From: Nitrospirota bacterium
GTDB lineage: Bacteria; Nitrospirota; JACRHJ01
Direction of reading: 5' to 3'
DNA length: 64,000 nt
Assembly (NCBI GenBank): GCA_963698885.1
Contig: CAVOSJ010000006.1
Location: 325,186-389,185, forward strand
A program made the position numbers and the translations under genes. Shown here in pieces: positions 3 through 61,947 of this stretch (within the stretch, counting starts at the first letter, position 1; each line of letters begins with the position of its first letter). The notes under the pieces were generated by a model. It saw only the letters and a list, made by a program, of their open reading frames with translations, had not been told where the DNA came from and made no database searches.

Positions 3-525
3 ATGACGGATTTCGCCGCCCTGGAGACCCGCCTTCGGCAGTTCCCCGGGATCAAGTTCATAGGGCACGGGCCGCTCTTCTGGGAAGGCATTTCCCTGGA
101 AGGCACCACGGAGGGGGTCCTGCCGCGCGGCAGGGTGATAGCCGGCGGGATAACGGTTAAGCTCATGGACGAGTACGACAACCTCTATGCCGACCTGTCG
201 GGCTATTCGGGCTACAGGGGACTCACGAGAGACCCCGGCGTTCGCACGGCAATTCATAATAAGGCATTCCGGCGAGATACTGTACGGGACCGACAACTTC
301 TTCCTGGGCCTTAAGCGATTTTTAGAGTCGCTTAAGCTCCCGGAGGACTGCGCCCGGCGCATATACGGTGAGAATGCATTACGGATCACGGGTGGAGCGG
401 GAGGGCTTTCGGAACCGAAACGCCTGAATACACAGGTAAGGCCTGCTGGTCCTTCAAATCACACGGGAAACGCGTCCGGCTTGGCGCGGCCTGACACATA
501 CGACACAGTCTTCAAGGAGGATTAG
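3..525 (+). CDS. amidohydrolase-family (TIM-barrel metal-dependent hydrolase) protein, 3' fragment entering the window; reading frame switches between ORF 3..314 and ORF 187..525
   Basis: C-terminal region ...FIIRHSGEILYGTDNFFLG...RIYGENALRITG resembles amidohydrolase C-termini; two overlapping ORFs in different frames imply an indel around 190-260. Confidence 0.35.
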
Positions 526-527
526 CC

Positions 528-2360
528 ATGTGCGGAATTGTGGGATATATAGGCGAAAAAAACGCCGTACCCATTCTCCTGGCGGGTCTTAAAAAGCTGG
601 AGTACAGGGGGTACGACTCCGCCGGCATCGCCTTCCTCCAGGACGGCAGTCTCGGCATCAGGCGCAGCGTCGGAAAGCTTAGGAACCTGGAGTCGGCCAT
701 AGAGGGAGAGGCCTGCATCTCCGGGGTAGGCATCGGGCATACCCGCTGGGCGACACATGGGAAACCCAGCGAGGCCAACGCACACCCCCACCGCTGCGGC
801 AAGGTGGCGGTAGTCCATAACGGCATTATCGAGAACTACGCCCAGCTAAGGACCGAGCTGGTACAACGGGGGCATACGTTCAAATCGGAGACAGACACTG
901 AAGTCATTGCACATCTTATAGACGATGGGCTTACAGAAGGGCTGGACCTGGAAGCCGCGGTAAGGCGGGGCCTAAGCCAACTGAAGGGCTCGTATGCGAT
1001 AGGCGTGGTGGTTGAGGACCGCCCGGACGTGCTGGTGGCCGCCCGCGCCGGCTGTCCGCTGGTGATAGGCCTGGGCGCCGGCGAATTTTTCATAGCCTCG
1101 GACCTCCCGCCGATACTGGGATACACGAAAGAAATCATATTCCTGGACGACTACGAGATGGCGGTGCTGTGCAGGGACGGAGTGAAGGTGACGGCCTTGG
1201 ACGGCTCCGCCAGGAAAAAAGACATAAGCCAGGTAAAGTGGAGCCCCGCGATGGCGGAAAAAGGGGGCTACAAGCATTTCATGCTTAAAGAGATATACGA
1301 GCAGCCCCAGGCGATCCGCGATACCTTCCTGGGCAGGATAGACGCCCCATCCGGCAGCGTCTCGTTTGAAGATTTAAACATCCCGGACGAGGTCTTGAAG
1401 ACGGTAAAAAAGGCCGCGCTTATCGCCTGCGGCACCTCCTGGCATTCGTGCCTGATAGCGAAGTTCATGCTGGAAGAGCTGGCCAGGCTCCCGGTGGAGG
1501 TGGATATCGCATCCGAGTTCAGGTACAGGAACCCTATAGTCGGCGCGGACACCCTGTTCGTGGCGGTAACGCAGTCCGGCGAGACGGCGGATACGCTGGC
1601 CGCGATGCGCGAGGCCAAAAAACTCGGGGCCAGGACGATTGCCATATGCAACGTGGTCGGAAGCACCGCGAGCCGGGACGCGGACGGCGTGATATACACC
1701 CACGCAGGCCCTGAGATAGGCGTCGCATCCACCAAGGCATTCACGGCACAGCTCACCGCTCTCTTCCTGCTCGCGGTCCGCATGGGTACCCTTCGCGGAA
1801 CGCTGGATAAGGAAAAAGCCGCCGCGTTACTTGGTGAGCTGACGGCCATACCGGAGAAGGTGGGACGCACCCTTTCCGTAATGGAAGACGAGATGGGCAA
1901 GCTGGCTAAAATTTTTTACAAAAGCAGCGACTTCCTTTACCTCGGGCGGGGGTACAGCTATCCGACGGCCCTGGAGGGCGCGCTGAAGCTGAAGGAAATT
2001 TCTTATATACATGCCGAAGGCTATCCGGCGGGAGAGATGAAACACGGGCCGATCGCGCTTATAGACGAGAACATGCCCGTGGTAGTCCTCGCGCCATCGG
2101 ACGACGTTTTTGAGAAAGTGGCTTCAAATATCGAGGAAGTCCGTTCGCGGGGCGGTCAGGTTATCGCCTTTGTGACGGACGGAGACTGGAAGCTGGAGGG
2201 GAAGGCAAACTATTTATACCGGGTGCCCGGCACCGTCCCATGTCTGACGCCTGTGTTGATGGCCATACCCCTCCAGCTCCTCGCCTATAAAATAGCGCTC
2301 TTAAGGGGGAGCGACGTGGACCAGCCGCGCAACCTGGCCAAGAGCGTAACGGTCGAATAG
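528..2360 (+). CDS. glmS: glutamine--fructose-6-phosphate aminotransferase (isomerizing)
   Basis: 610 aa; N-terminal MCGIVGY amidotransferase nucleophile, SIS-domain body, C-terminal ...KSVTVE; AAGGAGG RBS upstream. Confidence 0.95.
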   Translation: MCGIVGYIGEKNAVPILLAGLKKLEYRGYDSAGIAFLQDGSLGIRRSVGKLRNLESAIEGEACISGVGIGHTRWATHGKPSEANAHPHRCGKVAVVHNGIIENYAQLRTELVQRGHTFKSETDTEVIAHLIDDGLTEGLDLEAAVRRGLSQLKGSYAIGVVVEDRPDVLVAARAGCPLVIGLGAGEFFIASDLPPILGYTKEIIFLDDYEMAVLCRDGVKVTALDGSARKKDISQVKWSPAMAEKGGYKHFMLKEIYEQPQAIRDTFLGRIDAPSGSVSFEDLNIPDEVLKTVKKAALIACGTSWHSCLIAKFMLEELARLPVEVDIASEFRYRNPIVGADTLFVAVTQSGETADTLAAMREAKKLGARTIAICNVVGSTASRDADGVIYTHAGPEIGVASTKAFTAQLTALFLLAVRMGTLRGTLDKEKAAALLGELTAIPEKVGRTLSVMEDEMGKLAKIFYKSSDFLYLGRGYSYPTALEGALKLKEISYIHAEGYPAGEMKHGPIALIDENMPVVVLAPSDDVFEKVASNIEEVRSRGGQVIAFVTDGDWKLEGKANYLYRVPGTVPCLTPVLMAIPLQLLAYKIALLRGSDVDQPRNLAKSVTVE

Positions 2361-2397
2361 CGCGCGCGAGAAAAACTTAAGCCAAAAGGAGGACGCC

Positions 2398-3776: not shown

Positions 3777-4758
3777 ATGAGAAAGCCGGCGGTCGCCGTG
3801 ATAGGCGCGGGATACTGGGGCAAGAACATAATCAGGGCTCTGCACAAGCTTGACGCTCTCTCATGCATCTGCGATTCGAGCGATAAGGCGCTCGAACTCC
3901 AGAGAGAGGCATACGCGGGCGTGCGCACGGAGACGGATTACCAGGCGGTCCTGGATGACGCCACGATAACCGCCGTAGCCATAGCATCACCCGCCGCAAG
4001 ACACGCGGATATGATACGGCAGGCCCTGGAGGCGGGCAAGGACGTTTATGTGGAAAAGCCTCTCTGCCTTTCCGAATCAGAAGGCGCGTCTTTGGTGGCG
4101 TTGGCGGCCAGCCTGGGGAGGGTGCTGATGGTGGGGCATCTCCTGCATTACCACGACGCGGTGGTGAAGTTAAAAGAGATGATAAGCCAGGGGGAGATGG
4201 GGAAGATCCATTATATATACTCGAACCGGCTGAACCTGGGCAAGTTCAGGAGCGAGGAGAACGCGCTATGGAGCTTCGCGCCGCACGATGTCTCCGTGAT
4301 ATTGGGGTTAGCGGGAGAGATGCCTGAAACCGTATTCTGCAACGGCGGGGCCTTCCTGCAGGAAGGGGTCCACGACAGCACCTGCGCCCTGTTGAGCTTT
4401 CCCTCCGGGATGAGGGCTCACATATTCACAAGCTGGCTGAACCCGTTTAAAGAGCAGAAACTGGTGGTTGTGGGGAGCCGGAAGATGGCCGTTTTCGACG
4501 ACGTGCAGGCCCCGGAGCGGAAACTTCTGATTTATCCGCACGTCATCAACTGGAAGGGGAACTTCCCCGTGCCGGAGAAGAAGGAACCGGAAGCCGTGGG
4601 ACTTCAGGGCTCGGAGCCTCTTTTAAACGAGATGTCCCACTTCCTTGACGTGCGTGACGGAACGGAAAGTACCCGTGACCGACGGCGCGGAGGGTTTAAG
4701 GGTCCTGAAGGTGCTCCAGGCGTGCCAGAAGTCGCTCGATACCGGGACGAAGGTATCG
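3777..4758 (+). CDS. Gfo/Idh/MocA-family NAD-dependent oxidoreductase (WbpB-like); frame switches from frame 3 to frame 1 near 4650-4670 and no stop codon precedes the next gene
   Basis: N-terminal [11 protein letters not shown] Rossmann motif; C-terminal ...[25 protein letters not shown] continues in the frame of ORF 4645..5364. Confidence 0.7.
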
Positions 4759-5364: not shown

Positions 5365-6467
5365 CCTGAAAGCGCAATACAGCACCATTAAAGAAGACGT
5401 TATCGGCGCCATGATGGAGGTGCTGGAGGCCCAGCATTTCATCCTCGGGCCGAAGGTTACGGAACTGGAGCGGCAGGTCGCCCAGTACTCGGAAACCAAG
5501 TGGGGAATAGGCGTATCCTCCGGAAGCGACGCCCTCATCATATCCCTGATGGGTCTTGAGGTAGGCCAGGGTGATTATGTCATCACCACGCCGTATACCT
5601 TTTTCGCCACGGCCGGCGCGGCCGCAAGAGTGGGCGCAATCCCCGTGTTCGCGGACATCGACCCGAAAACATATAATATCGACCCGGCAAAAATAGCCGA
5701 GGCGGCCGCAAAGATACCCAAGGGTAAACTGAAGGCGATAATACCGGTGCATCTCTACGGCCAGTGCTGCGACATGGACGGGGTCATGGAAGTCGCGCGC
5801 GAATACGGCGCGGCGGTAATCGAGGACGCGGCCCAGGCGATAGGCGCAAGGGACCGCCACGGCCGCCCGGCCGGGAGCATCGGGGATACCGGGTGCTTCT
5901 CGTTCTTCCCCAGCAAGAACTTGGGCTGCTTAGGTGACGGCGGGATGGTGGTGACAAGCCGCGACGAGCCTGAAGGACAAGCTGACCATACTCCGCGCGC
6001 ATGGAAGCAGTCCCAAATATTTCCATAAGATAATCGGCGGCAATTTCCGCCTGGACGCCCTCCAGGCGTCGGTGCTCTCGGTGAAGCTCAGGCACCTGGA
6101 CCTCTGGAGCGAGAAGAGGCAGGAAAACGCGGACCTGTACAACATGCTGCTTGCCGATGCCGGGCTTCCGGTCGAGACGCCGTATATAGAAGAAGGATGC
6201 CGGCATATATTCAATCAATACGTAATCCGGGCGAAGGACAGGGACCTCTTAATGAACTTCCTGAAGGAAAAAGGAGTCGGTTCGGAGGTGTATTATCCCC
6301 TTCCGATGCACCTTCAGGAGTGTTTTAGCTATCTGGGGTATAAAGAAGGCGATTTCCCCGAAAGCGAGAAGGCCGCAAGACAGACCCTCGCGCTGCCGGT
6401 ATACCCGGAGCTCAGCTCGGACGCGATAGCCTACGTCGTGGAGCGGATAAAGGAATTTTACGCTTAA
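5345..6467 (+). CDS. DegT/DnrJ/EryC1/StrS-family PLP-dependent sugar aminotransferase (WbpE-like); one apparent +1 indel near 5960
   Basis: ORFs 5345..6028 and 6072..6467 are the N- and C-terminal parts of one aminotransferase (LLDLKAQY..., ...GDGGMVVT then [32 protein letters not shown] in a shifted frame); AGGAGG RBS upstream. Confidence 0.8.
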
Positions 6468-10256: not shown

Positions 10257-10291
10257 CGGGAATTAAAGAAACGGCTATGGCGGAAATAGAA

Positions 10292-11569: not shown

Positions 11570-11574
11570 GGTTT

Positions 11575-26862: not shown

Positions 26863-27910
26863 ATGGCCGAGACCGAAAAAATTCCCGAAGAAGCAAAAGA
26901 GATGCTCGCGCGCCTCAAGGAGACGGCGGGCAGCTCCGGGCTGCTGCGGGTGATGATTTACGGGAACCCGGACCCGGACGCCCTGGCTTCCGCGATGGCG
27001 CTGAAGAGCGTGCTGGATGAGGCGACCGGCGGGAAGCTGACGGTGGAACTCAATTACACCGGCGCGGTCGGCAGGCCGGAAAACGCGTCCATGATACGCC
27101 AGTTGAAGATCCCGGTCACCCCGATATCCGAGGCGGAGGCGAAGGACGCGGACAGGATTGCGATAGTGGACGGCCAGCCGCAGTTCTTCCAGGACTTCAC
27201 CCTCCCGCGCTGCGACATCGTTATCGACCATCACCCCAGGCTCCTGGACCGCCCCGTCCCGTTCGAGGACATCCGGCCCGAATACCTCTCCACCTCCTCG
27301 ATAATGACGGAGTACATGCGGGCCTCCGGCATGCGCCTTACGCGGGGGATTGCCAGCGCACTCTTATACGGCATCAAGACCGACTCCCGGAATTTCATGG
27401 CCGACTTATCAATCGGCGACATTGACGCGCTCAAGTGGCTCCGGGCGAAATCCGACCGGGACATAGTGAAGCGCATAGAGTTCTCCCAGTTCTCGCGGGA
27501 CGCGCTGGACTATTTCTCCATCGCGCTGGTGCGGCGGCGGTTCGTGCAGGGCGTGATGTTCACGCACCTGGGCCCGGTGCCCAGCTATGACGTTTGCGTG
27601 CAGATAGCGGACTTCCTGATAAGGGTGGAGCACGTGGAGTGGGCGCTTGTCACGGGCATCGTGGCGACGGAACTGGTGGTGGTATTCAGGAACGACGGGG
27701 TGAAGAAGGACGCGGGCTATCTATCGCGCACGGCTTTCGGAAAGCTGGGGAGCGCCGGGCGGACATAAGTCCATGGGCCGCGCAAGCATCCCTCAGAAGA
27801 ACCTGCCGAACGGGCTACTCCTCACGGATAACAAGGGAATAGAAAAATTCGTCCTGACACAGCTAAGCAAGGTGGACCCGGTTTTCGCGCCGGTGTTGAA
27901 GACGATATAG
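26863..27910 (+). CDS. DHH/DHHA1-family phosphoesterase (NrnA-like); one apparent frameshift near 27760
   Basis: DHH motif region (IVIDHHP), DHHA1-like C-terminus continues in a shifted frame (...GSAGGHKSMGRASIPQKNL...) to a stop at 27908-27910. Confidence 0.75.
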
Positions 27911-28903: not shown

Positions 28904-29513
28904 TTAGAGCAGCGGCTTTACATGCTTCGCGATTAACGCGATTGCCTTCTCCAGCAACTTTTTATTATCCCCCATATACTGCCACGTGCTCCGGCCGGAC
29001 GGGTGCGGGAGCGCGATTACCAGCGTCTCGAAGCTGTGATACCTGCGCGGGACGGCCCTGCCCACGATGTCCGTAAGCTTCGCCGGGCCGAGCAGGCGCT
29101 CTATCGCGAGCTTCCCGATTGCCAGAATGACCTTCGGCTGGACGATGCGGAGTTCTTTTACAAGATACGCCGCGCAGTTATGTATTTCGATATCCCCCGG
29201 CGTCTCGCGGCGGCCGTTTTTGTCCGGGCCGGGATAGCACTTGGTTATGGCGGTCATGTAAGCATTCGCGCGGAAGGATTCTTCGTCGATGCCAGCACGG
29301 GCGAGCCATGAAAATAATGTCTGTCCCAGCCGTCCCGGCGAACGGCTTCCCTTCCCGGCACTCGACAAGCCCCGGCGACTGCCCGACGCTCATCACCTTC
29401 GCGCCGTATTTCCCGGATACGATCGGGTACGCGGGCGGCGGGATGTTGCACATCGTGCACGGGCGGATAAGCGAGATGAGGCGGGAGAATTCGGATTCGC
29501 GGCTCTCAAGCAT
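28904..29513 (-). CDS. uracil-DNA glycosylase, family 4; one apparent frameshift near 29300-29370
   Basis: ORF 29178..29513 carries the family-4 motif (GQSPGLVE...GKPFAGTAG) and ORF 28904..29368 the C-terminal half (AITKCYPG..., LPHPSGRS). Confidence 0.8.
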
Positions 29514-30644: not shown

Positions 30645-31134
30645 TTATTTGTCAGTAGCAGCTTCAAGTTGGTTTATTAAAAGTTCCCAATTATTACGAC
30701 TCATTTCATCTTCATGCATTTTTTGTAAAATTATCTCACGTCCGAATTCAAATTTTTCGCCTACGTCATTTTTTACGTAGTTTTGATTTGCTGCCGCAGC
30801 ATCTAATAGTTTAAAATCCATTTCAATTTCTTCAGGCTTCCGGAAGTTATTTTTTTTAACATGGATTAATAACTTATGAAATGCAGTTGTTGTAAATTTT
30901 TTCTTGCTGTCCCAGGATGTTAATAAAGAGATACCGAGTTTCATAAAAATAATCATCCATTAAAACTATCTCCTGTGTAAGAGCATCGAAATCAGCTCTT
31001 TTCATTTTTTTTCCAGTACGGGTATTATAGCTGTTAATTGCATCTTTAAAGTCATTAATATCATGTTCATTCAATTTATCCACCCGTGTCTTTGAGAATA
31101 CTTTAGATAATTTATCCATTTCTTCTGTATTCAA
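30645..31134 (-). CDS. hypothetical protein encoded in the low-GC island (about 163 aa); frame change at a homopolymer near 30895-30920
   Basis: ORFs 30874..31134 and 30645..30956 overlap in different frames across an A/T homopolymer; no family recognised. Confidence 0.5.
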
Positions 31135-31225
31135 CTTAGGATAATCGCAGAATCTTCTTTTGAAGAGGAATTCACAGGAGAGGAACTTTTATCGGAAAAA
31201 ATATAATAAGGCCAAACAACCCCTT

Positions 31226-31378
31226 TTAAAGTGGAAACAACCTCACCCAAAAAAACCATTTTACGAAGCCATTATCTCTTGCATATTGCCAATTAAATCG
31301 AGGTACAAACAGGGAGCAAGCGGCTATATAGAAAAAGAAAATAACGACAATTAATTTTCCGATTGGGTTGTTTGGCAT
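31226..31378 (-). CDS. candidate small hydrophobic peptide (50 aa: MPNNPIGKLIVVIFFFYIAACSLFVPRFNWQYARDNGFVKWFFWVRLFPL)
   Basis: below the ORF-track length cutoff; one predicted TM helix; start codon lies inside the right arm of a perfect 12-bp inverted repeat (31365-31376) whose partner (31212-31223) follows the stop. Confidence 0.25.
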   Translation of the reverse strand: MPNNPIGKLIVVIFFFYIAACSLFVPRFNWQYARDNGFVKWFFWVRLFPL

Positions 31379-31837: not shown

Positions 31838-32813
31838 TCAGAATGACAGGTTCACGGCCTCCCGCACTTCCTCCATCGTCTCCCCCGCGACCTTGCGGGC
31901 GGTCTCTGCCCCGGCCTTCAGCATCTCACGCGTCTCGTCCTCACGGCCTGTCAGCGCGGCCCTTTTCTCCCGGAATGGCGCAAGGTAAGTGCTTAATATT
32001 TCGGCTAAATAGCTCTTGTGCTTCACGCAGCCAAGCCTTCCGGCCCGGCAGCCCTCATCGGCTAAAGGCGCGTCATTTGGCCCGAACGCCTTGTGGTAGT
32101 CCTGGACGGAGCAGATGTCCGGGTCGCCCGGGTCGGTCGCGTGGATTTTCTTAGGGTCCGTAATGAGTTGCATCACTTTCGGCTTCAATCTCTTCCGGCG
32201 GCTCGTCCAAAAAAATGGCGTTATTCAAGGACTTGGACATCTTCCGGCCGTCCGTGCCCGGCAGCTTCGGGGTCTGTGTCAGGAGCGCCTTCGGCTCCGG
32301 AAAAACCTGTTTATACCGATGGTTAAACGCCCTCGCGATCTCTCTGGCAAGCTCGATATGCGGGACCTGGTCAACCCCAACCGGCACCGCGCCCGCCTTG
32401 TATAACATTATGTCCGCCGCCTGAAGCACCGGGTATCCCATCAGGCCGTAGTTCACGCCATGTAAGTGCATGTCTTCAATCATGTTTTTTAGCGTCGGGT
32501 CCCGCTCCAGCCAGGGCATGGGGGTAATCATCCCGAAAAGGAGATAAAGCTCCGCATGCTCCTTCACATCGGACTGGACGAATACCGTCGAGCGGGAGAA
32601 ATCGATACCCAGCGCCCGCCAATCCAAAGCCATTTCCATAATGTTTTTAGGAAGTTCGGAGGTATCGGCGTAGGCGGTGGTCAGGGCGTGCCAGTCGGCG
32701 GCCATGAAAAAACATTCATACTCTTCCTGCAACGATAGCCAGTTGCCGAGCGCGCCGACTAAGTGCCCGATATGCAGTCTGCCGGTAGGCCGCATCCCGG
32801 ATAAGAGCCTCAT
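31838..32813 (-). CDS. trpS: tryptophan--tRNA ligase; one apparent frameshift near 32160-32190
   Basis: ORF 32151..32813 has class-I aaRS HIGH (TGRLHIGH) and KMSKS motifs; the C-terminal anticodon-binding part continues in ORF 31838..32188. Confidence 0.9.
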
Positions 32814-39728: not shown

Positions 39729-41262
39729 ATGGAGCATAACCCCTCAACCCGGAACCAGGAAGTAAATGACCGTAGACTGCTTGAGGCGAGCCTCGACCCG
39801 ATCGTGGCGATAAACCTGGAAGGCAAGTTCGCCTACGTCAATGAGGCTATGGTAAGGGTCACGGGCATCCAGAGGGACGCCCTCATCGGGTCGGACCATT
39901 ACGGCTATCTTAACCGAGCCCGAAAAGGGGAAGGAGGGCCTTCTGCAGGCTATAACGAAAGGGTCCATCACCGACTATCCCCTGACCTTCAAGCACACGG
40001 ACGGGCACCTGACGGACGTACTTTGCAACGCCTCCGTTTACCGCGATGAAGAGGGCAAAGTCGCCGGCATCTTCGCGGAGGTAAGAGATATTACCGAGAG
40101 AAAAAGGGCCGAAGAGGCCCTCCGAGAGGCCGAAGCATATAACAGGAGCCTGCTGGAGGCGAGCCTCGACCCGCTCGTGGCAATAAATCTGGAGGGCAAG
40201 TACGTGTACGTCAACGAGGCTACGGAGAAGGTCACGGGCCTTTCGAGGGACGCTCTGATAGGGTCGGACTTCACAGGCTACTTCACCGAGCCCGAAGAGG
40301 CGAGAAAGGGTTACTTGCTGGTTTTTGCGACAGGGTCCGTCACCGACTATCCCCTCACCATCCGGCACAAGGACGGGCATCTGACGGACCTGCTTTGCAA
40401 CGCCTCCGTTTACCGCGATGAATGGGGCAAAGACGCCGGCATCTTCGCGGTGTCGAGAGATATTACCGAGAGAAAACGGGCCGCCGAGGCTCTTCGAGAG
40501 GCCGCAGCGTATAACAGAAGCCTGCTGGAGGAGGTAAGAAAATTAAACCTGGAGCTGGAGCAGAGGGTACGCGACCGGACTGCCCAGTTAGAGTCCGCCA
40601 ACTGCGAACTGGAATCCTTCAGCTACTCGGTCTCCCACGACCTGCGCGCGCCCCTTCGGAGCCTGGACGGCTTTTCCCAGGCCATCCTGGAGGAATATTC
40701 GGACAGGTTAGATGAAAAAGGGAAAGACTACCTGGGAAGGATCCGGCTTGCCAGCCAGAGGATGGGCCATCTTATAGACGACATGCTGAAGCTATCCCGG
40801 GTGACAAGGAGCGAGATGCGCTTTGAAAACGTGGACCTGACGGGGATTGCGAGAGAAATAGGAGATGAACTGAGTAGGGCGGAGCCGGGGCGCAAGGTCG
40901 AATTCATTATAGAAGAAGGCGTCACGGCATGGGGCGACTTGCCGCTGCATGCGGATGGTTATGCAGAACCTGCTGTCGAATTCCTGGAAATTCACATCCA
41001 GGCACGAGAAGGGGGTAATACAGTTCGGCGTCTCGGAGATGGGGGGGAAGAAAATTTATTTCGTGAAGGACGACGGCGCCGGTTTTGACATGGACTATCC
41101 GACAAACTCTTTACCCCATTCCAGCGTCTGCATTCCACGGCGGAGTTTCCGGGGACGGGCATTGGCCTCGTAATCGCAAAAAGGATTCTAAAGCGGCACG
41201 GGGGCGAAATCTGGGCTACGGCGAAACCGGAAAAAGGGGCGACCTTTTATTTCTCATTTTGA
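39729..41262 (+). CDS. tandem-PAS sensor histidine kinase (PAS-PAS-HisKA-HATPase_c); at least three apparent indels (near 39912, 40940, 41108)
   Basis: ORFs 39711..40049, 40177..41088, 40949..41173 and the frame ending at 41262 piece together into one kinase (H-box [13 protein letters not shown]; G-box GTGIGL). Confidence 0.8.
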
Positions 41263-48229: not shown

Positions 48230-48522
48230 CCTTCGGTCTCCTCCTCAGCCTGTATCTTTACCTGGTCGCCGGGGTGGATCATCTCCTTGAACTCGGGCAT
48301 GACCTCCGCCGCGAGCGCGTAGTAGCTGCGCTGGTTCTTGATGAACCTGTCGGAGGTTTCGTCGTAGACCTTGTCGAAGAGGGTCGAGCCGCATGTCGGG
48401 CAGGTGATAACCGCATGGCCCCTCTCGTCAAAGCAGAGAAAAGACATCACGTGCGCCCCGCAGAGCCTGCACGGTGTTATAATGAGTTCCGGGCATGTAG
48501 TCATAACTATAAAGTCTATCAC
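48226..48522 (-). CDS. small Cys-rich (zinc-ribbon-like) protein, start overlapping the cytochrome gene (ATGA)
   Basis: CxxC...CxxC pairs (CRLCGAH...CPTCGSTL); 4-nt overlap with cytochrome start suggests translational coupling; start position uncertain. Confidence 0.4.
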   Translation of the reverse strand: MIDFIVMTTCPELIITPCRLCGAHVMSFLCFDERGHAVITCPTCGSTLFDKVYDETSDRFIKNQRSYYALAAEVMPEFKEMIHPGDQVKIQAEEETEG

Positions 48523-51340: not shown

Positions 51341-52319
51341 AAGGCCCCGGTGCCTTCGCCCGGGCCGGGCGAGGTCGTCGTGCAGGTGAAGGCGGCGCTC
51401 ACCTGCGGCACGGACATAAAGGCATATCTCAGGGGCCATCCGAAGATACCGATGCCCTCGCCGCTCGGGCACGAGTTCTCAGGCGACATCTATAAAATCG
51501 GCGAAGGGGTGGAAGGCTGGGCGGAGGGCGATGCTGTAATGGCGGTGCATTCCGCGCCGTGCGGCGAGTGCGCGTTCTGCAAGATGGGCAGGGAGAACCT
51601 CTGCACGACCATAATGGACGAAAAAGTCCTGGGTGCGTATGCGGACTTCATAAAGCTCCCGGCGCGCGTCGTGAAGCAGAACATGTTCAAAAAGCCCGAG
51701 TCGCTCCCCTATCCGGAGGCGGCGATGCTGGAGCCGCTCGCGTGCGTCGTGCACGGGTACCGCATGACGGAGGCCGAGAAGCCGAAGAGCGTCCTGATAC
51801 TTGGCGCGGGGCCGATAGGGCTTCTGCACCTGATGCTGCATAAGAAAAACGGCGCGAAGGTCATCCTCGCGGGCAGGAGGGCCGACCGGCTTGAGACGGC
51901 GAAGGACCTGGGCGCGGACGCCGTGCTGGAAGGCGACCTCCAGGACATCGCATGGAAGGTAACCGAAGAGACCGAGGGGCTCGGCGCGGACCTTGTCATC
52001 GAAGCGACCGGGAACAAGGACCTCTGGGAGAACTCGCCGTCCCTTGTGAGACGCGGCGGGACGGTACTGCTGTTCGGGGGCTGTCCCTCCGGCACGCGCG
52101 CCTGTTTCGACGCCGGACGCGTCCATTACGACGAGATAAAGCTGATGGGCGCGTTCCATTTCACGCCCTCGGACGTCAAGGCGGCTTTCGAGCCTCCTGA
52201 CAGCCGAAAGGTTAAACGTCTCCAAACTAATCTCGGGAAGGTATAACCTGGACGACCTTCAGATAGCGTTCGACGAGCTTATCGGCGGCCGAGGGATAAA
52301 GTTCGCGATAATACCGTAA
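51293..52319 (+). CDS. zinc-dependent alcohol dehydrogenase (MDR family); apparent frameshift near 52200
   Basis: GHEFSGD catalytic-zinc motif, structural-zinc Cys cluster (CGECAFC), GAGPIGL Rossmann; C-terminus continues in shifted frame (...YNLDDLQIAFDELIGGRGIKFAIIP). Confidence 0.85.
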
Positions 52320-52322
52320 ACC

Positions 52323-52399: not shown

Positions 52400-52408
52400 A
52401 AAGGTTTT

Positions 52409-53309
52409 ATGCTCCCGTACGAAATACTCCGCAAAATTAAGCGACTGGAAATTAAGACCTCCCGGCTGGTCGAGGGCGCGCTCTCCGGCGGATACCTGTC
52501 CACGTTCAAGGGGCGGGGTATCGAGTTCACCGAGGTGCGCGAGTACGTACCCGGCGACGACGTCCGGGCGATAGACTGGAACGTTACGGCCAGGACGGGC
52601 ATCCCCCACATCAAGACGTTTGTCGAGGAGAGAGACTTAACCGTCATGCTCGCCGTGGACGTATCGGCCTCGATGGACTTCGGCACTACTACACAAACAA
52701 AAAAAGAGCTGGCCGTGGAGTTCGCCGCCGCCGCCGCGCTCCTCGCCGCCCAGGGCGGGGACAGGGCGGGGCTTATCGCATACACGGACAGGGTGGAGTT
52801 GTTTATCCCGCCTAAGCGCGGCAAAAGACACGTCTATAACCTCCTGACCGCGCTCTCGACAATCACACCGAAGGGCAAGAGGACGGACCTGGCCGCACCC
52901 GCCGAGCTGCTTATACGCGCGCTTAAAACCCGCTCCACGCTGTTCTGGGTATCGGACTTCCTGGAGGCCGGTCTGCCGGTCTGCGGCCACCGGCACGCGC
53001 GCGCTGAAGGCGCTCTCACGGCGGCACGAGCTTGTGCCGGTCGTGCCCTCGGACAGGCGGGAGCGCGAGCTTCCGCCAGGGGGCGGGATGGCGGAGCTTA
53101 TCGACCCGGAGACGGGCGCCTTAGTCCTGGTGGACCTCTCGTCCCCCCGTTTTATTAAGGCGTTTAAAAGCTGGAAAGACGAGGCGGAAAAGGGCAGGAC
53201 GGCGCTTTTTAACGCCCTGAAGGCGGAGCCCGTATGGCTTGCCACGGGCAGTTCGCCCATCACGCCGCTCGCGAGATACTTCCACCGGCACGCGAGGAGG
53301 CGCGTCTAA
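52409..53309 (+). CDS. DUF58-domain protein (MoxR-associated); apparent frameshift near 52970
   Basis: GRGIEFTEVREYVPGDDVRAIDWNVTARTG...LAVDVSASM; C-terminus continues in ORF 53034..53309. Confidence 0.8.
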
Positions 53310-54296: not shown

Positions 54297-55285
54297 GCGT
54301 GTTAGGATATCCCGTGTTCCTGTGGCTGCTTCTCCTTGTGGCGGGCCTTGGAGCCGCGTTCCTGCTCTCTTACCGGAAAGTTAAAAGGGCGCAACGCGCC
54401 TTTGCGTCGGTGGAGATGACGGCGCGGCTTGGCCTTGGGAACGGGTCGAAAAAATTCATGGCCCGGTCGTCATTTATTTTAATATCTGCCGTACTTGCCG
54501 TCGTCGCGCTGGCCCGTCCCCTGGGGCCCTCCGCCAATGCGGCGGAAGCGGTCCCGGTCTCCATGGACGTAATCGTCGCGCTTGATATTTCCGACAGCAT
54601 GGGGGTAACGGACGGAGGGGCCGGTGGTAACGGGGACAGGCTTTCCGCCGCGAAGGAATTCATAAATAACCTGGCGGCCGCCGCGCCTTCGGACAGGTTC
54701 GGGCTGGTGCTTTTCTCCGGCAATTCCATAATAAGCTGCCCGCCCACGATGGACCATGACGCGTTCCTGACTATTCAGGGCGATGCAGGCATGGACAAGC
54801 AGGACCTGCCGGGTACGGCCATAGGCGACGCGCTCATCACCGCCGCGAATAAGTTCAAAAAATCAAACCTTCCGCGCGCCGTGGTAGTGGTTTCGGACGG
54901 GGAGAATACCTACGGGCCGGAACCTGCCGAGGCGGCAAGGGCGGCGGAGGCGAAGGGGCTGAAGGTCTATACCGTGGGCGTCGGGACGGCGCATGGCGGG
55001 AGGATCCCGGAGGGCCTCGACTTCTTCGGCCAGATGACATTCAAGAAGGACAAGGCGGGCCAAACGGTAGTTTCGTCGCTGGATGAAGGGACGCTGAAAT
55101 CCGTCGCGGAGGCTGGCGGCGGGAAGTATTTCTATTCTCTGGACCCCGGCGCGGCAAGCGGGCTTGCGAAAGAGCTGTCGCCAAAAGCGAAAGGGAACTC
55201 GCTTGAAAAATTCGCGGGCGCGGAGGAATACGGGCCGTGGTTTGCGCTCGGCGCGGCGGATAGGCGCTGGGGCGGATGGCGTTGA
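54293..55285 (+). CDS. BatB-like vWA-domain membrane protein
   Basis: GTG start 54293 after GGAGGAGG; TM helices then vWA MIDAS region (VIVALDISDSMG); overlaps BatA stop (GTGA). Confidence 0.75.
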   Translation: MSVLGYPVFLWLLLLVAGLGAAFLLSYRKVKRAQRAFASVEMTARLGLGNGSKKFMARSSFILISAVLAVVALARPLGPSANAAEAVPVSMDVIVALDISDSMGVTDGGAGGNGDRLSAAKEFINNLAAAAPSDRFGLVLFSGNSIISCPPTMDHDAFLTIQGDAGMDKQDLPGTAIGDALITAANKFKKSNLPRAVVVVSDGENTYGPEPAEAARAAEAKGLKVYTVGVGTAHGGRIPEGLDFFGQMTFKKDKAGQTVVSSLDEGTLKSVAEAGGGKYFYSLDPGAASGLAKELSPKAKGNSLEKFAGAEEYGPWFALGAADRRWGGWR

Positions 55286-55289: not shown

Positions 55290-55640
55290 ATGAAACCCTC
55301 TCATAATATAATATTTCTGTTGCCGTTTATTTTCGCCTTCTCCCCCGTCGCCACGCCGACTGAGAAGGGCATCGACGCGTTTTCCGCCGGGAAATACGAC
55401 GACGCGCTCTCTCAATTCGGGAAGGCGGCGAAGGATAACCCGGACAAGGCCGAGGCGCATATAAACCTTGGCGACGCGCTGTACAAGAAGGGCGAGTTCG
55501 ATAAGGCGGCGAAGGAATATTCCGAGGCGGCAAGGCTTAAGCCAAATATGCCCGAGGCCTGGTATAACATGGGGGACGCGTTCTACAAGATGGGCGCATA
55601 CGACAAGGCGCTATCGGCCTTCCAGAAGGCGGATTCTTAA
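55290..55640 (+). CDS. TPR-repeat protein (BatC-like)
   Basis: signal-like N-terminus then TPR repeats (AEAHINLGDALYKKGEFDKAAKEY..., AWYNMGDAFYKMGAYDKAL). Confidence 0.65.
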   Translation: MKPSHNIIFLLPFIFAFSPVATPTEKGIDAFSAGKYDDALSQFGKAAKDNPDKAEAHINLGDALYKKGEFDKAAKEYSEAARLKPNMPEAWYNMGDAFYKMGAYDKALSAFQKADS

Positions 55641-55672
55641 AAAAGGAAGCGGACACGAAGCATAATATAGAA

Positions 55673-56165
55673 GTGACAATGGAGAAGGTGAAGAAGGAGC
55701 AGGTCAAAAAAAACGGGGGCGGCCCCCAGGAAAAAAGCGGCGGGCAGGGGAAGCAGGGCAGCAGGGTAAACAGGGGCCGGGAACCGGAAGTCAAAACCGG
55801 CCTGGGCAGGCCGGAAGCCAAAACCAGCCTGGGCTGGCGGCGCGTAATAATCAGCCGGGTCAGGGGCAGAGCGGGCAGGGCCAGAATCAGCAGAAGCAGG
55901 CTGGTCAGAATAGGCAGGCCCAGAGCGGACTGGGACAGGGCGGCACAGTGGCGCGGGGGGGCTGTCGGAGGGCGACGTCTCCCGTATGCTGTCAAAGCAG
56001 AGCGAGGAAGAGAAGAGCCTGCGCAGCTATTTCCGGCCCGGGAAGAGGGACCCGTTAAGCGAGAGGGAGGCCCAGATAGAACAGATGCTGCGCGGGATGG
56101 GCGCGCCGGTGCCGTCCGCGAGGGCCGTGAAACCGGGCGCTCCATACGTCGAAAAGGACTGGTAA
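55673..56165 (+). CDS. Gly/Gln-rich low-complexity protein region, frames unresolved (possibly a C-terminal continuation of the TPR protein or a separate BatD-like gene)
   Basis: homopolymer-rich G/Q-coding DNA; plausible C-terminus ...EEEKSLRSYFRPGKRDPLSEREAQIEQMLRGMGAPVP...EKDW in another frame. Confidence 0.3.
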
Positions 56166-56227
56166 TAGCCTTATTCCCTTGACTTAACCCCTTAAATTTT
56201 ATAAAATTTCAATCTTGTTACCAGTTT

Positions 56228-56264
56228 AAAAGTTTTTGGCGTTACCTTTTTCCAAAAAGGTAAC
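56228..56264. repeat. mosaic palindromic intergenic repeat, copy 12 (linker + P hairpin only)
   Basis: AAAAGTTTTTGGC GTTACCTTTTTCCAAAAAGGTAAC. Confidence 0.85.
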
Positions 56265-56750: not shown

Positions 56751-57530
56751 ATGTCCATACTCGCGCATCTGGACGAGCTCCGGAAGCGGCTTGTCTATAC
56801 CGTCATCGTGCTTTTCATAGCCTTTCTGGTCTGTTTCCAGTACTGGGAATACCTGCTCCGCTGGATGAAGGTCCCGCTGACCCTGGTGCTTACGGTAAAG
56901 ACCACATATCCCTTCGTGTTCCCGACGTACCTGCCCAGCCCCACGAAGCTCATAGCCGTCGCTCCGGGCGAGGTGTTCTGGATAGCGCTGAAGATCGCCT
57001 TTATCGCCAGCATCTTCCTCTCGCTGCCTTTCATCCTCGCCCAGGTATGGCTCTTCATTGCGCCCGGGCTATTGCCCAAGGAACGCAAATGGGCGCTGCC
57101 TTTCGTCTTCTCGGCGACGTTCATGTTCGTCCTCGGGGCGCTGTTCTGCCAGTACGTCGTCCTGCCGTTTGCGATGCGGTTTCTGCTGACATACGGCATA
57201 GAAGAAGTGACCCCGATGATTACGATCAAGGAATATATCGATTTCTGCGGTAAGTTCCTGCTCTCGTTCGGCCTGGTTTTCGAGCTTCCTCTTATCATAA
57301 CGCTCCTTTCGCGCCTGGGTCTCGTCACGCCCCAGTTCCTTGCCAAGAACAGGAAGTTCGCCATACTCATCGCCTTCATCGCGGCGGCCATCCTTACCCC
57401 GACCCCCGACATGTTCAACCAGACCCTCATGGCGGTGCCCATAATACTGCTCTACGAGGTAGGCATCCTCATGGCCAGGATTACCAGGAGGCGAAAGGAT
57501 AACGCGGCCGAGGCGGAGACGGATTTATAA
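56751..57530 (+). CDS. tatC: twin-arginine translocase subunit TatC
   Basis: LAHLDELRKRL N-terminal motif, six TM helices; start set at ATG 56751. Confidence 0.9.
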   Translation: MSILAHLDELRKRLVYTVIVLFIAFLVCFQYWEYLLRWMKVPLTLVLTVKTTYPFVFPTYLPSPTKLIAVAPGEVFWIALKIAFIASIFLSLPFILAQVWLFIAPGLLPKERKWALPFVFSATFMFVLGALFCQYVVLPFAMRFLLTYGIEEVTPMITIKEYIDFCGKFLLSFGLVFELPLIITLLSRLGLVTPQFLAKNRKFAILIAFIAAAILTPTPDMFNQTLMAVPIILLYEVGILMARITRRRKDNAAEAETDL

Positions 57531-57534
57531 ACCT

Positions 57535-57629
57535 GTTACCTTTTTGGAAAAAGGTAACGCCAAAAACTTTTAGGGTTAAACACCCCAGCTTTCTTTTGTG
57601 TTACTTTTCTTTCCCGAAAGAAAAGTAAC
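57535..57629. repeat. mosaic palindromic intergenic repeat, copy 13
   Basis: GTTACCTTTTTGGAAAAAGGTAAC GCCAAAAACTTTT ... GTTACTTTTCTTTC-CC-GAAAGAAAAGTAAC. Confidence 0.9.
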
Positions 57630-57646
57630 GACTTTCCATTTTACCC

Positions 57647-57915: not shown

Positions 57916-59589
57916 ATGAGGCTGATATCGGTTTTAACGTCTTCATTATTAATCCTGCTCTTATCCGTGAGCGCCGCTTTTGCCGACGGACAGAAGGTCA
58001 CAAGCGACCTGCTGGACGTGCTTAAGGCAAAGGGCGTGTTAGACGACGCGTCTTACGACAGCCTGAAGAAAAAAGAGGCCGCCTCCCCGACCCCGGCGGC
58101 GAGTACACTACAACTTCTCGATGTCCTTAGGGCGAAGGGCGTGCTGGGCGAGGAGGACTACAACAGGCTGTCCAGGGAGGCCGCGCCCACAGCCGTCCCG
58201 GCAGTCGCAACCAACCCCGCACCCGCGGCCGTGCCCGTGGCGGAAACCGTAACCGCGCCCGAGCCAGCTACAGCGCCCGCGCCGACTGCCGCGGCATCGC
58301 CCGGAGGGCCGGAAAGGCCGATAGACGGTACCCTGACAAAGGTTGAAGATAGTTTCGCGAGGGTGACGGGGGATATTGTAAGGCTGAAAATCGGCGGCTA
58401 CTTACAGGCCGGCTATTTAAACGACGACGCAGGCTTCTCTTACGGCGCGCCGCCTAATAACTTGTTCAGCCCGACCTCCGGCAATCAGTTCTTCGTCAGG
58501 CGGGCAAGGCTCATTTTCGATTTCGGCGTGGGCCCGAAGGTGGGCGCGCGGGTCTCGATTGAGCCAGCGGTCGACCTCAACACGGCAAGCACGACCAGCG
58601 GCGGCAGGAGCATCCTCCGGGACGCCTATGGCTGGACCGACTACATCCCTTATACAAGAATAACCCTGGGCCAGTTCAAGACCCCGTTCGGACTGGAGGG
58701 CGTGGAGTCGTTATCGGACAACCCCACGATTAACCGCTCCATGGTCACGAACCTTGTGCACTACCCGCTCCTCAGGGACATAGGCGTCATGGCCGCCTGG
58801 AACTTCAAAACGGATGTCTCTGGCCTGCCGCTTGGCGCGCAATGGGCGGTGGCGCTCGTCAACGGCACGGGATACAACCTCCCGGACGACAACGACCAGA
58901 AAGACCTCGTGTTCAGAGGGACAGTCAATCCGCTTGTGGAAGGCCTTAACATCGGAGGTTCTCTCTATGGGGGCAAGACGCACGTAACGCCGGCTGCGGG
59001 CGCCGCCTTCAATAAATACCACGACAGCTGGGCCGCCGAGGCCGAGTATGTCCCGCCCTTCCTGAAAGGCTTGAAGCTCAGGGGCGAATATCTCTGGAAC
59101 AGGCAGTACTATACCAAATATTACAGCTACGCGAGCGTTACAGGCACGGCCAGCAACACCCCGCCCGCTACCGCGTCTACAGTGGGGACCCTCCCCAATA
59201 ACCCCAGCACTGCAAACGCCGCCCGCACGGTCCATACCGCCGGATGGTATGCGCTGGCGGTTTACAGGGTGGACGGACTGCAGGGCATCGGGAGCTACCT
59301 TAACGGCCTTGAGCCCCTTGTACGCTACGACACCATGAACGAGGACGAGGACGGGACTCCCTGGGTATTTACCAGCGGCTCGGGCGCTGCAACGAAGACA
59401 CTCACAGTCAATTCGCACACCAGATACCGTACAACGGTGGGTCTAAACTACTACTTCAATAATTACGCGCGGCTGATGCTGGACTACGAGATGATACATG
59501 CGGACGCGGGCCTCAGGAGGGCTTCAATAGAGTCCATAGACCTTATATCGCACCGCCTCTTCACGACGCTCTTGCAGGTGAAGTTTTAA
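57916..59589 (+). CDS. outer-membrane beta-barrel porin (possibly phosphate-selective OprO/P-like)
   Basis: signal peptide ...VSAAFA; Ala/Pro-rich linker; beta-rich body ending in C-terminal Phe (...LQVKF). Confidence 0.5.
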   Translation: MRLISVLTSSLLILLLSVSAAFADGQKVTSDLLDVLKAKGVLDDASYDSLKKKEAASPTPAASTLQLLDVLRAKGVLGEEDYNRLSREAAPTAVPAVATNPAPAAVPVAETVTAPEPATAPAPTAAASPGGPERPIDGTLTKVEDSFARVTGDIVRLKIGGYLQAGYLNDDAGFSYGAPPNNLFSPTSGNQFFVRRARLIFDFGVGPKVGARVSIEPAVDLNTASTTSGGRSILRDAYGWTDYIPYTRITLGQFKTPFGLEGVESLSDNPTINRSMVTNLVHYPLLRDIGVMAAWNFKTDVSGLPLGAQWAVALVNGTGYNLPDDNDQKDLVFRGTVNPLVEGLNIGGSLYGGKTHVTPAAGAAFNKYHDSWAAEAEYVPPFLKGLKLRGEYLWNRQYYTKYYSYASVTGTASNTPPATASTVGTLPNNPSTANAARTVHTAGWYALAVYRVDGLQGIGSYLNGLEPLVRYDTMNEDEDGTPWVFTSGSGAATKTLTVNSHTRYRTTVGLNYYFNNYARLMLDYEMIHADAGLRRASIESIDLISHRLFTTLLQVKF

Positions 59590-59595
59590 AGAGCT

Positions 59596-59679
59596 GTTAC
59601 CTTTTTGAAAAAAGGTAACGCCAAAAACTTTTAGTCCGGCTTTCTTTTGGTACTTTTCTTTCACCTGAAAGAAAAGTAC
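59596..59679. repeat. mosaic palindromic intergenic repeat, copy 14
   Basis: GTTACCTTTTTGAAAAAAGGTAAC GCCAAAAACTTTT ... GGTACTTTTCTTTC-ACCT-GAAAGAAAAGTAC. Confidence 0.9.
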
Positions 59680-59690
59680 GAGGTACTATA

Positions 59691-60520
59691 ATGCGCCTTT
59701 TATCGAGACTTATACTGTTAGTAATGCTTGCCGCGCTCTGGCGTGCTCTCTCCCGGCCCAGGCCGAAACCAACATCGTGCTCGCCTCCACGACTTCTACG
59801 GAGAATACGGGGCTTTTCAAGGTGCTTATCCCCGCATATTATAAATGGACGAAACTGAAGGACGTGAGGATACATGTCGTCGCGGTAGGCACGGGAAAGG
59901 CCATCGAGATAGCGAAGCGGGGCGACGCGGACCTGCTGCTGGTGCACGACAGGGTGAAGGAGGACGCCTTCATTAAGGCGGGGTACGGGGTGGACAGGCG
60001 CAACGTGATGTATAACGATTTCATTATCACCGGGCCAAAGAACGACCCGGCGGGAGTGAAATCCGCGAAGAGCGCCGCCGACGCCTTCAAGAAAATCGCC
60101 GCCTCCGGGTCCGTCTTCGTATCAAGGGGAGATGAGTCCGGCACCGAAGCCAGGGAGAAGATACTCTGGAAGGCGGCGGGTCTGGAAGTGCCCGTGAAGA
60201 ACTACCTCTCCGTGGGGCAGGGAATGGAGGAGACGCTCCGGATAGCGGACGAAAAGCAGGCGTACACCATCTCCGACCGCTCCACGTACCGCACCCTTCT
60301 TGACAGGCTGAAATATACGACGCTCCTGTATCAGGGCGACCCGGGCCTTTTTAACCAGTACGGGACGATTGCCGTAAACCCGGAGAAATTCCCCCACACC
60401 CATTACAGGGAGGCGGAGGATTTTATGAACTTCATCACGGGGCCGGAAGGACAGAAAGTAATAGGAAACTACGCAGATAAAACGGGCACAAAAATATTTT
60501 TTCCGGACGCCGCGAAGTAG
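59691..60520 (+). CDS. tupA: tungstate ABC transporter substrate-binding protein (TupA-like); apparent frameshift in the signal-peptide region near 59750
   Basis: TSTENTGLFKVLIPAYYKW...VVAVGTGKAIEIAKRGDADLLLVHD...VSRGDESGT match TupA as I recall it. Confidence 0.75.
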
Positions 60521-60523
60521 CGG

Positions 60524-61223
60524 ATGGGCGATATCCAAAACGGGGTCTATAACGCCGTCCATCTGATCCTTTCGCTCGACCCGGATTTATACGCCGTAAT
60601 CTTGCTGTCGCTCAAGGTAACAGGCGTTGCGGTAATTATCGCCTCAGCACTTGGCATCCCTGCCGGGACATTTCTGGCGCTCCGGAATTTTCCCGGCAGG
60701 GGCGCGCTGATTACACTCTTCAATACCTTTATGGGTCTGCCGCCCGTGGTCGCGGGGTTGGCGGTCTATCTCTTCCTCTCCCGGAGCGGCCCCCTTGGCT
60801 CGCTCCAGCTTTTATTTACCCCTTCCGCGATGGTAATCGCACAGGCGCTCGTGGTATTCCCCATCGTCGTAGCCCTGACATGGTCCGCCGTGTCCTCAGT
60901 CAACCCCGCCGTCCGGCAGACCGCAATCCTTTTAGGGGCGCCGCCTGTTAAAGTCGAGATGCGGGTGGCCCTGGAGGCGAAGCTGGGAATATATTCCGCG
61001 GTAATCGCAGGGTTCGGCAGGGCAATGGCCGAGGTAGGCGCGGTACTTATGGTAGGCGGCAATATCGCGGGCTATACCAGGGTAATGACGACGGCGATAC
61101 TGCTGGAGACGCAAAAAGGGAGCGTTCGACATGGCGATAGCGCTGGGTATCGTGCTTTTGACCCTTGCCTTTATCGTGAACGCGCTCTTAAGGCTTGGGC
61201 AGATGAAGGGTTTTGCGCCATGA
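60524..61223 (+). CDS. tupB: ABC transporter permease (TupB-like); apparent frameshift near 61120
   Basis: ABC permease fold with multiple TM helices; C-terminus continues in shifted frame to TGA 61221-61223. Confidence 0.75.
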
Positions 61224-61947
61224 GCCTTACCTGCCATTTAAAGGATGTATCGCAAGTCTTACGGCGGAAGAAAAATCCTCGAGCCCGCGGACTATGAGTT
61301 TCCGCCCGGCAAAATCACCTGCATAATCGGGCCGAACGGCAGCGGGAAGAGCACGCTTTTAAACATCGCATCATATCTTGAGAAGCCGGACGCCGGCACC
61401 GTGGAATATAAAGACGGCGGCAGTTCCATACCGCCCGGCCTGTCCTTAAGGAGAAGGCTGACCTGCGTAACCCAGGCCCCGCTTCTTTTCAGTACGACGC
61501 TTTTTAAAAATATTATTTTTGGGCTTAAGTTCAGAGACCTGACGGACGGATGAGATAAGGACAAGGGCGATGGAATCTCTTGAGCTGGGCGGGCTGTCCC
61601 ATCTTGCGAATGCAGGGGCCAGGACCCTGTCAGGAGGAGAGGCGCAGCGGGCGGCCATGGTCCGGGCATACGCGCTCCGGCCGGAGGTTATTTTTTTAGA
61701 CGAGCCTTTTGCGAACCTGGACCCGGAAGGCGGCCGGCTGATGGAGCGGCTGACGCTCAAGATGAAAGACGAAGGCGCGGCCGTGGTGTTAGTCACGCAT
61801 AACCTTTTCCAGGCCCGGCGTCTTTCGGACCAGGTATATTTTTTATTCAACGGACGACTGATAGAATCTGGGGAGTCCAAAAAATTTTTTAATGAGCCCA
61901 GGGAAGAACTGACCCGGCAGTTCGTGAGCGGCGAAATGTTTTTCTAA
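61220..61947 (+). CDS. tupC: ABC transporter ATP-binding protein (TupC-like); two apparent frame changes
   Basis: Walker A GPNGSGKST, signature LSGGEAQR, Walker B IFLDEP spread over frames 2, 3 and 1. Confidence 0.75.

Follow-up and report, generated by a model that had tools for sequence, protein, structure and literature searches.

The window analysed here is a stretch of 64,000 nucleotides from a Nitrospirota bacterium (assembly GCA_963698885.1, contig CAVOSJ010000006.1, positions 325,186 to 389,185), and our subject is the many breaks of reading frame that interrupt its protein-coding genes. This stretch lies on a contig of 411,921 bp, belonging to a metagenome-assembled genome (MAG) of Nitrospirota, that is on record at NCBI and the European Nucleotide Archive (ENA); two intact window proteins are 100% identical to proteins of this contig, P0001 and P0121. 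Its G+C content is about 57%, its coding density is high and it contains no tRNA genes; it holds about 60 genes. About 20 of these genes are interrupted by a total of about 29 frame-breaking lesions, which corresponds to roughly one lesion per 2.2 kb on average, when fewer than one would be expected per 64 kb of an ordinary finished genome. An earlier note on this DNA had spoken of more than 20 pervasive frameshifts, which was borne out and proved to be an undercount: every gene that it had named as broken was confirmed by split Pfam matches and local alignments, and its counts for a PAS histidine kinase gene (three), batA (about three) and a tupC-like gene (two) were correct. A gene of a low-GC island is broken as it had said, although at three places by homologue mapping rather than at one, and several broken genes had escaped it, namely a radical SAM/DUF2344 gene (24874), a 106-aa gene (48511), batB and a BatC-like TPR gene.

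The lesions were detected and placed using complementary approaches. A codon-usage Viterbi path through the window contained many gapless same-strand frame switches, and Pfam scans of stop-to-stop open reading frame (ORF) fragments found successive halves of single models in adjacent frames: DegT was split into 3-190 and 191-359 of 360, Cys_Met_Meta_PP into 1-281 and 279-381, DUF2344 into 1-128 and 126-170, UDG into 4-40 and 31-137, DUF58 into 1-146 and 151-209 and ABC_tran into 2-76 and 87-137, while PAS, HisKA and HATPase_c followed each other over three frames. Lesions were then placed, with an accuracy of a few bases, by local MAFFT alignments against two to five relatives. Coding-filtered ORF chains were used for this work, as raw blastn gap lists and an unfiltered ORF-chain scan were too noisy, with out-of-frame ORFs and the relatives' own errors contributing to the noise of unfiltered scans. 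One candidate, an apparent -1 at 24912, was rejected after local alignment as an artefact of the boundary of a high-scoring segment pair.

When the N-terminal fragment of the window's tryptophanyl-tRNA synthetase (TrpRS) was compared with species-representative genomes, the closest relatives were MAGs that the Microflora Danica (MFD) project had recovered from Nitrospirota. The relatives used share 84-97% nucleotide identity with the window and fall into two sets. The long-read-style set comprises L001 (MFD00991.bin.2.105, with contig_N names that are typical of long-read assembly), L081 and L085 (both from ENA ERZ25039590) and L086 (ERZ25039509). The short-read set comprises three loci of Illumina MAG GCA_049801375.1, namely L002 (MFD06091_ilm_asm_bin59, an Illumina assembly), L088 and L089, together with contigs L082-84, L090, L092 and L093 of the Joint Genome Institute (JGI), L087 from Logan, and L003. 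Jointly, the relatives cover the window at 1-21.4 kb, 23.7-43.2 kb and most of 48-64 kb, a low-GC insert at about 49.4-51.25 kb lying outside their coverage.

At the left end of the window, the Amidohydro_2 gene (3-525, on the + strand like all the broken genes below unless the - strand is given; its 5' end lies beyond the window) carries a +1 at 233..236, with CCCC in the window versus CCC in L082 and L089; the L082 ORF matches window frame 3 and then frame 1, and L081 has a -1 of its own adjoining this site. The 527-aa GFO_IDH_MocA+Hexapep gene (3777-5364) has an extra A at 4648 (TTG[A]CGTG versus TTG-CGTG in L081 and L089 and TCA-AGTG in L082), and the DegT/WbpE-like aminotransferase gene (5345-6467) has an extra C at 5969..5970 (GAGC[C]TGAAG versus GAG-CTGAAG in L089), after whose removal the ORF encodes 378 aa, like its orthologue. 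In the gene for a Cys/Met-metabolism pyridoxal phosphate (PLP) enzyme (11447-10295, -), a +1 at 10619 was located by alignment to relatives and by the Pfam split, and the repaired product has 387 aa, with 384-390 aa in relatives. The radical SAM + DUF2344 gene (22536-25098) has an extra C at 24874 (AAAAG[C]AAAGCG versus AAAAG-AAAGCG in the Illumina assembly L002), and its repaired ORF of 853 aa aligns through the end of the L002 ORF. The next gene, rng, encoding RNase G (25213-26743), has an extra A at 25399 (CCTT[A]GAGAAA versus CCTT-GAGAAA in L002), and once repaired (509 aa) it is 100% identical to L002 upstream and 98% identical downstream of the break. Local alignment placed an extra C at 27754..27755 in the DHH phosphoesterase gene (26863-27910), whose window product has 301 aa versus 348 aa in relatives of at least 90% identity. 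The UDG-superfamily gene (29513-28907, -) has a +1 at 29323..29328, a base found in neither L001 nor L002, and the repaired product matches UDG 5-137/141 in one stretch.

The island gene (31378-30648, -) is broken three times, since its homologue family of about 240 aa maps onto four frame segments of the window. The first break is a +1 at 30939..30941 (GAA[A]CTC on the coding strand), where the 240-aa homologues P0155, P0158, P0159 and P0160 pass from frame -2 to frame -3 at ...YFYE|LG.... The second, from frame -3 to frame -2, was placed only to the interval 31134..31196 by tblastn of the 240-aa homologues and lies in a non-conserved linker. The third is a -1 at 31249..31255, where the coding strand has T7 and T8 is needed for the spacing W-x-x-[LF]GE: the frame changes from -1 to -3 at FVKWFF|LGEVV, and in all homologues W is separated from [LF]GE by two residues. 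The neighbouring trpS gene (32813-31838, -) carries a +1 at 32186..32188, a base that L001, L002 and L003 do not have.

In the PAS histidine kinase gene (39729-41262), comparison with L001 revealed a +1 at 39897..39908 (CGGC[T]ATC versus CGGC-ATC), a +1 (G) at 40947 and a -1 at 41099 within HATPase_c (CTAT-CCGAC versus CTATGCCGAC). HisKA and HATPase_c lie in different frames before repair, and the repaired product reads PAS, PAS, HisKA and HATPase_c (2-106/111). This gene also contains an internal witness, as its segment 39759-40531 holds two tandem copies of a PAS module (nucleotide identity 81-84%, with a period of 372-373 nt), whose offset is 373 nt up to the lesion at 39906 and 372 nt beyond it. 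Farther on, a 106-aa gene upstream of a cytochrome c554-like gene has a +1 near its 5' end (48509..48511, -); the base is not in L085, whose 106-aa product spans two window frames. The Zn-dependent alcohol dehydrogenase (ADH) gene (51293-52319) has an extra C at 52193..52194 that is not in L085, L090 or L092, and its window product has 317 aa versus 341 aa in relatives.

The region that follows is the most heavily affected. The DUF58 gene (52409-53308) contains a scrambled patch at 52975..52995 with a net loss of 14 nt: L085, L090, L092 and L093 are equal in length here, the window is 14 nt shorter and no simple alignment was obtained. In batA (53309-54296), there is a -1 at 53451 where five relatives have one extra base, a +1 (A) at 53852 (GCCT[A]CCCGG versus GCCT-CCCGG in five relatives) and a +1 at 54232 placed by local alignment to relatives; after these three edits, BatA has 328 aa as in L085, L090 and L092 and matches BatA 1-77/77 and VWA 1-172/174. 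The last codons of batB (about 54290-55285) hold a patch of +5 (1+1+3) at 55255..55275 whose bases are missing from five relatives. The BatC-like TPR gene (55290-56165) passes from frame 3 to frame 2 at 55637..55638 through a -1 (T3->T2; TTCTTTAAAAAAGG in L090 versus TTC-TTAAAAAAGG in the window), from frame 2 to frame 1 at 55760..55790 in a Q/G-rich low-complexity stretch, and from frame 1 to frame 3 at 55930..55960 adjoining a G7 run; the last two breaks were placed to intervals only, the former from three-frame translation against the L085 and L092 proteins. Right after the start codon of this gene, at 55290-55310, the window also carries additional bases, +1 and +2 over 15 nt, compared with L085 and L086, with the net in-frame effect of MKPSHNII versus MNPLII; this difference may be a compensated error pair or natural variation.

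Near the right end, the tupA-like binding-protein gene (about 59692-60520) has a frame break, 1 nt out of register, at 59739..59765 in the signal-peptide region: the lengths in L085, L086, L088 and L092 vary but are congruent modulo 3, and the window departs from this by one. The tupB-like permease gene (60524-61223; 232 aa in relatives) has a +1 at 61122 (GGGA[G]CGTTCG versus GGGA-CGTTCG or GGGA-GCTTCG in four relatives), and the tupC-like ATPase gene (61219-61947) has a +1 at 61252 (TATC[G]CAAG versus TATC-CAAA, -GAAG or -AAAG in four relatives) and another +1 at 61548, placed by local alignment to relatives. After both edits, TupC has 241 aa as in L088 and L092 and matches ABC_tran 2-137/137.

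Adding or deleting one base was sufficient at 21 sites to restore single ORFs of orthologue length (548, 378, 387, 853, 509, 370, 204, 340, 530, 344 and 360 aa for the repaired ORFs), the restoration by single indels that the earlier note had proposed to confirm against orthologues. Such broken genes could in principle be real frameshifts in a lineage undergoing genome decay, as true pseudogenes are in Mycobacterium leprae or in recent host-restricted symbionts. The window resembles these genomes in that many genes are affected, that several are multiply broken (BatA, the TPR gene, the kinase and the island gene, three times each) and that two lesions span several bases. Unlike in decaying genomes, however, the lesions come without nonsense mutations, without large intragenic deletions, without relaxed selection and without sharing by related lineages. 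Not a single in-frame stop was left after indel repair, against about 29 indels (P<=0.0015 if at least 20% of real lesions were nonsense), and no large deletion was found inside genes. The ratio of non-synonymous to synonymous divergence from orthologues (pN/pS), summed over about 1,800 synonymous and about 5,700 non-synonymous sites per side, was 0.208 upstream of the first break and 0.203 beyond it when read in the repaired frame, so that purifying selection has acted equally on the parts that would be disabled and on the remainder of the genes. The case of trpS, a gene that is normally indispensable, also speaks against decay: after repair, the window TrpRS has 324 aa and matches tRNA-synt_1b 6-291/292, and at 90% identity or more it has 324 aa in every short-read relative (an Illumina MAG and five JGI contigs), whereas on long-read-style contigs its products have 220+116 (including the window), 318, 283 and 112 aa.

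This difference between types of assembly extends to the other genes. Using the repaired-window ORFs as queries, we found that the long-read relatives L081, L001, L086 and L085 switch frame 17 times over 47 kb of aligned coding sequence, at sites unlike those of the window, whereas the short-read relatives, over about 46 kb of coding sequence compared without redundancy, had no frame switch inside genes, an outcome with a probability of 6e-8 at the long-read rate. Three apparent frame switches in the Illumina locus L089 were rejected, as they all lie upstream of start codons in stop-to-stop queries and are not gene breaks. Gene calls displayed the same pattern: the DegT protein has 373 aa in L082, L084 and L089 and is called as 197+98+71 aa in L081, and the topoisomerase of L086 is called as 152+521 aa. 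The Bac_transf+CoA_binding_3+Polysacc_synt_2 protein (window gene at 7713-10256), a single gene of 847 aa in short-read relatives, is cut to 578 aa in L081, and its 90%-identity cluster further includes pieces of 120-641 aa encoded on other contigs in ENA. Since long-read relatives are broken elsewhere and short-read relatives are unbroken, breakage tracks the type of assembly and not phylogeny, and together with the intact selection signal this makes genome decay an extremely improbable explanation. Within one long-read-style metagenome assembly (ERZ25039590), the density of frameshifts is about 4-fold higher on L081 (0.44/kb) than on L085 (0.11/kb), as expected if the error rate follows the coverage of each contig. 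The window's own truncated products are on record in NCBI/ENA (TrpRS 220+116 aa, ADH 317 aa, DHH 301 aa and a TupC fragment of 102 aa), so the breaks belong to the deposited assembly, and fragments of the kind that the earlier note had anticipated from annotation pipelines are present in public protein collections.

The extra bases could also be tolerated by the organism if programmed ribosomal frameshifting or transcriptional slippage rescued the affected genes. No orthologue carries the extra base, hence there is no conservation of any such site, and programmed frameshifting is excluded on this ground; the contexts moreover lack a common slippery motif and, to our knowledge, about 29 recoding sites in unrelated genes would be unprecedented, judged from prfB and dnaX-type sites. 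We regard recoding as vanishingly improbable.

Altogether, repair, lesion spectrum, selection and the platform comparison support what the earlier note had proposed, that these are assembly indel errors and not pseudogenes. Several observations nevertheless weigh against consensus error. The 22 single-base lesions comprise 18 insertions and 4 deletions (binomial p=0.004), and this insertion bias is not the textbook Nanopore profile. Only one of the 29 lesions (31249-31255) touches a run of at least 5 nt, versus 0.96 expected by chance, giving no link to homopolymers. The lesions are clustered along the window (index of dispersion 2.8, p=2e-4), with none in 11-24 kb or 41.2-48.4 kb and nine in 52-56 kb (ADH/DUF58/bat), including the -14 and +5 patches, a cluster that alone could resemble a decaying operon. 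Lastly, for the PAS kinase the sole relative, L001, is itself a long-read contig.

The second of these observations bears on one specific form of the error hypothesis, in which the breaks would be classical Nanopore miscalls of homopolymer length. One lesion does lie in a T7/T8 run, one TPR break placed only to an interval is near the G7 run, and homopolymer indels are stressed in the literature (PMC9262707). In 20 of the 21 precisely placed lesions, however, the longest run touching the site is only 1-4 nt, the single lesion in a longer run is what chance predicts, and insertions prevail over deletions, the dominant lesion being a +1 in ordinary sequence. The earlier note had placed several shifts at homopolymer runs, and this did not hold: neither of the two runs that it cited is a lesion site, as the WbpB-like gene breaks at 4648 (G[A]C) and not at the A7 of 4764-4770, and the nearest break of the island gene is the +1 at 30939-30941 and not the T-run near 30895-30902. 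We thus consider homopolymer miscalling very improbable as the general cause of the breaks. Concentration at homopolymers is a typical but not a required trait of long-read consensus artefacts, and it is absent here.

The cluster raises a mixed possibility, in which most lesions would be errors while those at 52.2-56.0 kb (ADH, DUF58, batA, batB and TPR) would mark a Bat/aerotolerance-type operon recently inactivated in this population. The 9-10 lesions in 3.8 kb amount to about six times the window average and include both multi-base patches. Yet repaired BatA is 95% identical to that of L085 and free of stops, with a pN of 0.028 and a pS of 0.154 (pN/pS about 0.18), and DUF58 past its patch, read in the shifted frame, shares 99% identity with L085. 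In addition, these genes are also heavily broken in the long-read relative L086, but at other sites, which indicates a region that is hard to call and not one that is decaying. An inactivated operon therefore seems very improbable.

Residual consensus errors of a long-read-only assembly, with genes that are intact in the organism, are by contrast a very probable explanation of the frame breaks, as far as can be judged from sequence comparisons. We infer that the window contig was most probably assembled by Flye from Nanopore reads, with a single Medaka round and no short reads for polishing. The nearest relatives include MFD Nanopore MAGs with contig_N names, and the pipeline described for the MFD long-read MAGs (PMC12313526) ran Flye on Nanopore reads alone, followed by one Medaka round, and applied a low threshold of minimum coverage. 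The R10.4 consensus becomes near-finished only at about 40x (PMC9262707, from the same group as the MFD MAGs), and a density of one lesion per 2.2 kb is in line with a contig of too low coverage. The consensus would then have retained one base too many at 18 sites, one base too few at 4 sites and a short scrambled patch at 2 sites (a net loss of 14 nt in DUF58 and a gain of 5 nt in the last codons of batB). Such lesions lead gene callers to break a gene into two to four pieces or to report a false chimaera, as for a 461-aa BatA/BatB ORF considered below.

Low coverage or mixed strains may be the source of the insertion bias and of the clustering. Both traits are shared by L081 and L001, whose insertions and deletions stand at roughly 8:2 and 6:3 by our reading. 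No shared motif, whether slippery or, for example, a methylation site, was seen around the insertion sites by inspection. At window positions 4648, 32187, 54232, 61122 and 61252, the window has two bases where relatives have one polymorphic base, and we hypothesize from this hint that the consensus may have been drawn from mixed strains. When insertions were compared by eye with strain-polymorphic sites, 7 of the 18 had a mismatch to the closest relative within 2 nt versus about 22% expected, which is not significant (p~0.08).

Indel errors in long-read-only (Nanopore) assemblies and MAGs are a known kind of artefact, recognised as IDEEL-type truncation (Sereika et al. 2022, PMC9262707; Kastor, PMC12007338; MFD-LR catalogue, PMC12313526). 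As in those cases, single-base indels produce fragments in adjacent frames while the same taxa have unbroken genes in short-read assemblies, the density is about 0.4 per kb of coding sequence and similar in other long-read contigs of the clade, and quality control of the completeness type does not flag the errors. Unlike what the literature's emphasis on homopolymer indels would suggest, the lesions of the window are mostly +1 in ordinary sequence and clustered. A parallel to a mixed consensus may come from Trypanosoma brucei, for which work on allele-specific assembly (PMC8445201) is reported to describe artefactual frameshifts from collapsed divergent alleles; a consensus of two variants can hold frameshifts that are present in neither. 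T. brucei is a diploid eukaryote, whereas the variants would here be co-existing strains.

Three multi-domain genes of the window (3777-5364, 7713-10256 and 22536-25098) might be taken for fusions caused by frameshifts, and apparent gene fusions needed a case-by-case reading. The earlier note had called for read-level confirmation of fusions, a caution that was needless for the GFO_IDH_MocA+Hexapep (WbpB+WbpD-like) gene at 3777-5364, a single gene of 527/528 aa in the short-read relatives L082, L084 and L089: judging from these orthologues, this 527-aa fusion is genuine. The radical SAM+DUF2344 gene (22536-25098, about 850 aa) was checked against L002 over its C-terminal 464 codons only. The caution was warranted for the 461-aa ORF at 53900-55285, which is an artefactual BatA/BatB chimaera.

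In L081, L082 and L089, one or two BON-domain genes lie between the 847-aa gene and the Cys/Met PLP enzyme gene. The window lacks them at this place (10256-10295), and the resulting gap of about 500-900 nt could reflect either natural variation or a local assembly deletion. The low-GC (44%) island that harbours the gene with three breaks lies at 30500-31850, flanked by a pirin gene on one side and trpS on the other, and L001 and L002 have a different content here. Its protein family, of about 240 aa and with a hydrophobic N-terminus by our reading, has 36 representatives at E<=0.001 in an exhaustive HMMER search and no Pfam or PHROG match. A second low-GC segment (about 47%) is a 2.2-kb insert carrying an N6_N4 DNA methylase gene (50018-51211, -) and a 200-aa ORF (49450-50052). 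It is flanked by a 42-nt direct repeat, 95% identical (49045-49086 and 51287-51328), that duplicates the 5' end of the ADH gene, and L085 and L092 have other genes at this place. The segment 49045-51328 looks like a small mobile methylase or restriction-modification island with att-like ends. These variable low-GC islands are a real feature and survive the check.

Many genes of the window are separated by an intergenic hairpin repeat family with modules GTTACCTTTTTGGAAAAAGGTAAC and GTTACTTTTCTTTC-N4-GAAAGAAAAGTAAC. Its copies lie at 11470-11574, 16469-16577, 17610-17722, 18562-18673, 22434-22530, 25109-25218, 26747-26844, 35933-36020, 37496-37609, 46116-46228, 52313-52425, 56222-56258, 57524-57644 and 59585-59681; they also match intergenic regions of relatives and look like REP (repetitive extragenic palindrome) or terminator elements.

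The error profile described here, insertion-biased, clustered and outside homopolymers, may interest those who polish metagenome assemblies. About one in three genes of the window would be misannotated, whether as pseudogenes, as fragments or as false fusions, and the relevance of the frame breaks thus lies in annotation rather than in the biology of the organism, for which their interest is low. Any gene loss, split gene, missing stop or new fusion read from this contig or from sibling long-read MAGs would need a check against orthologues or reads before it is taken as a property of these bacteria.

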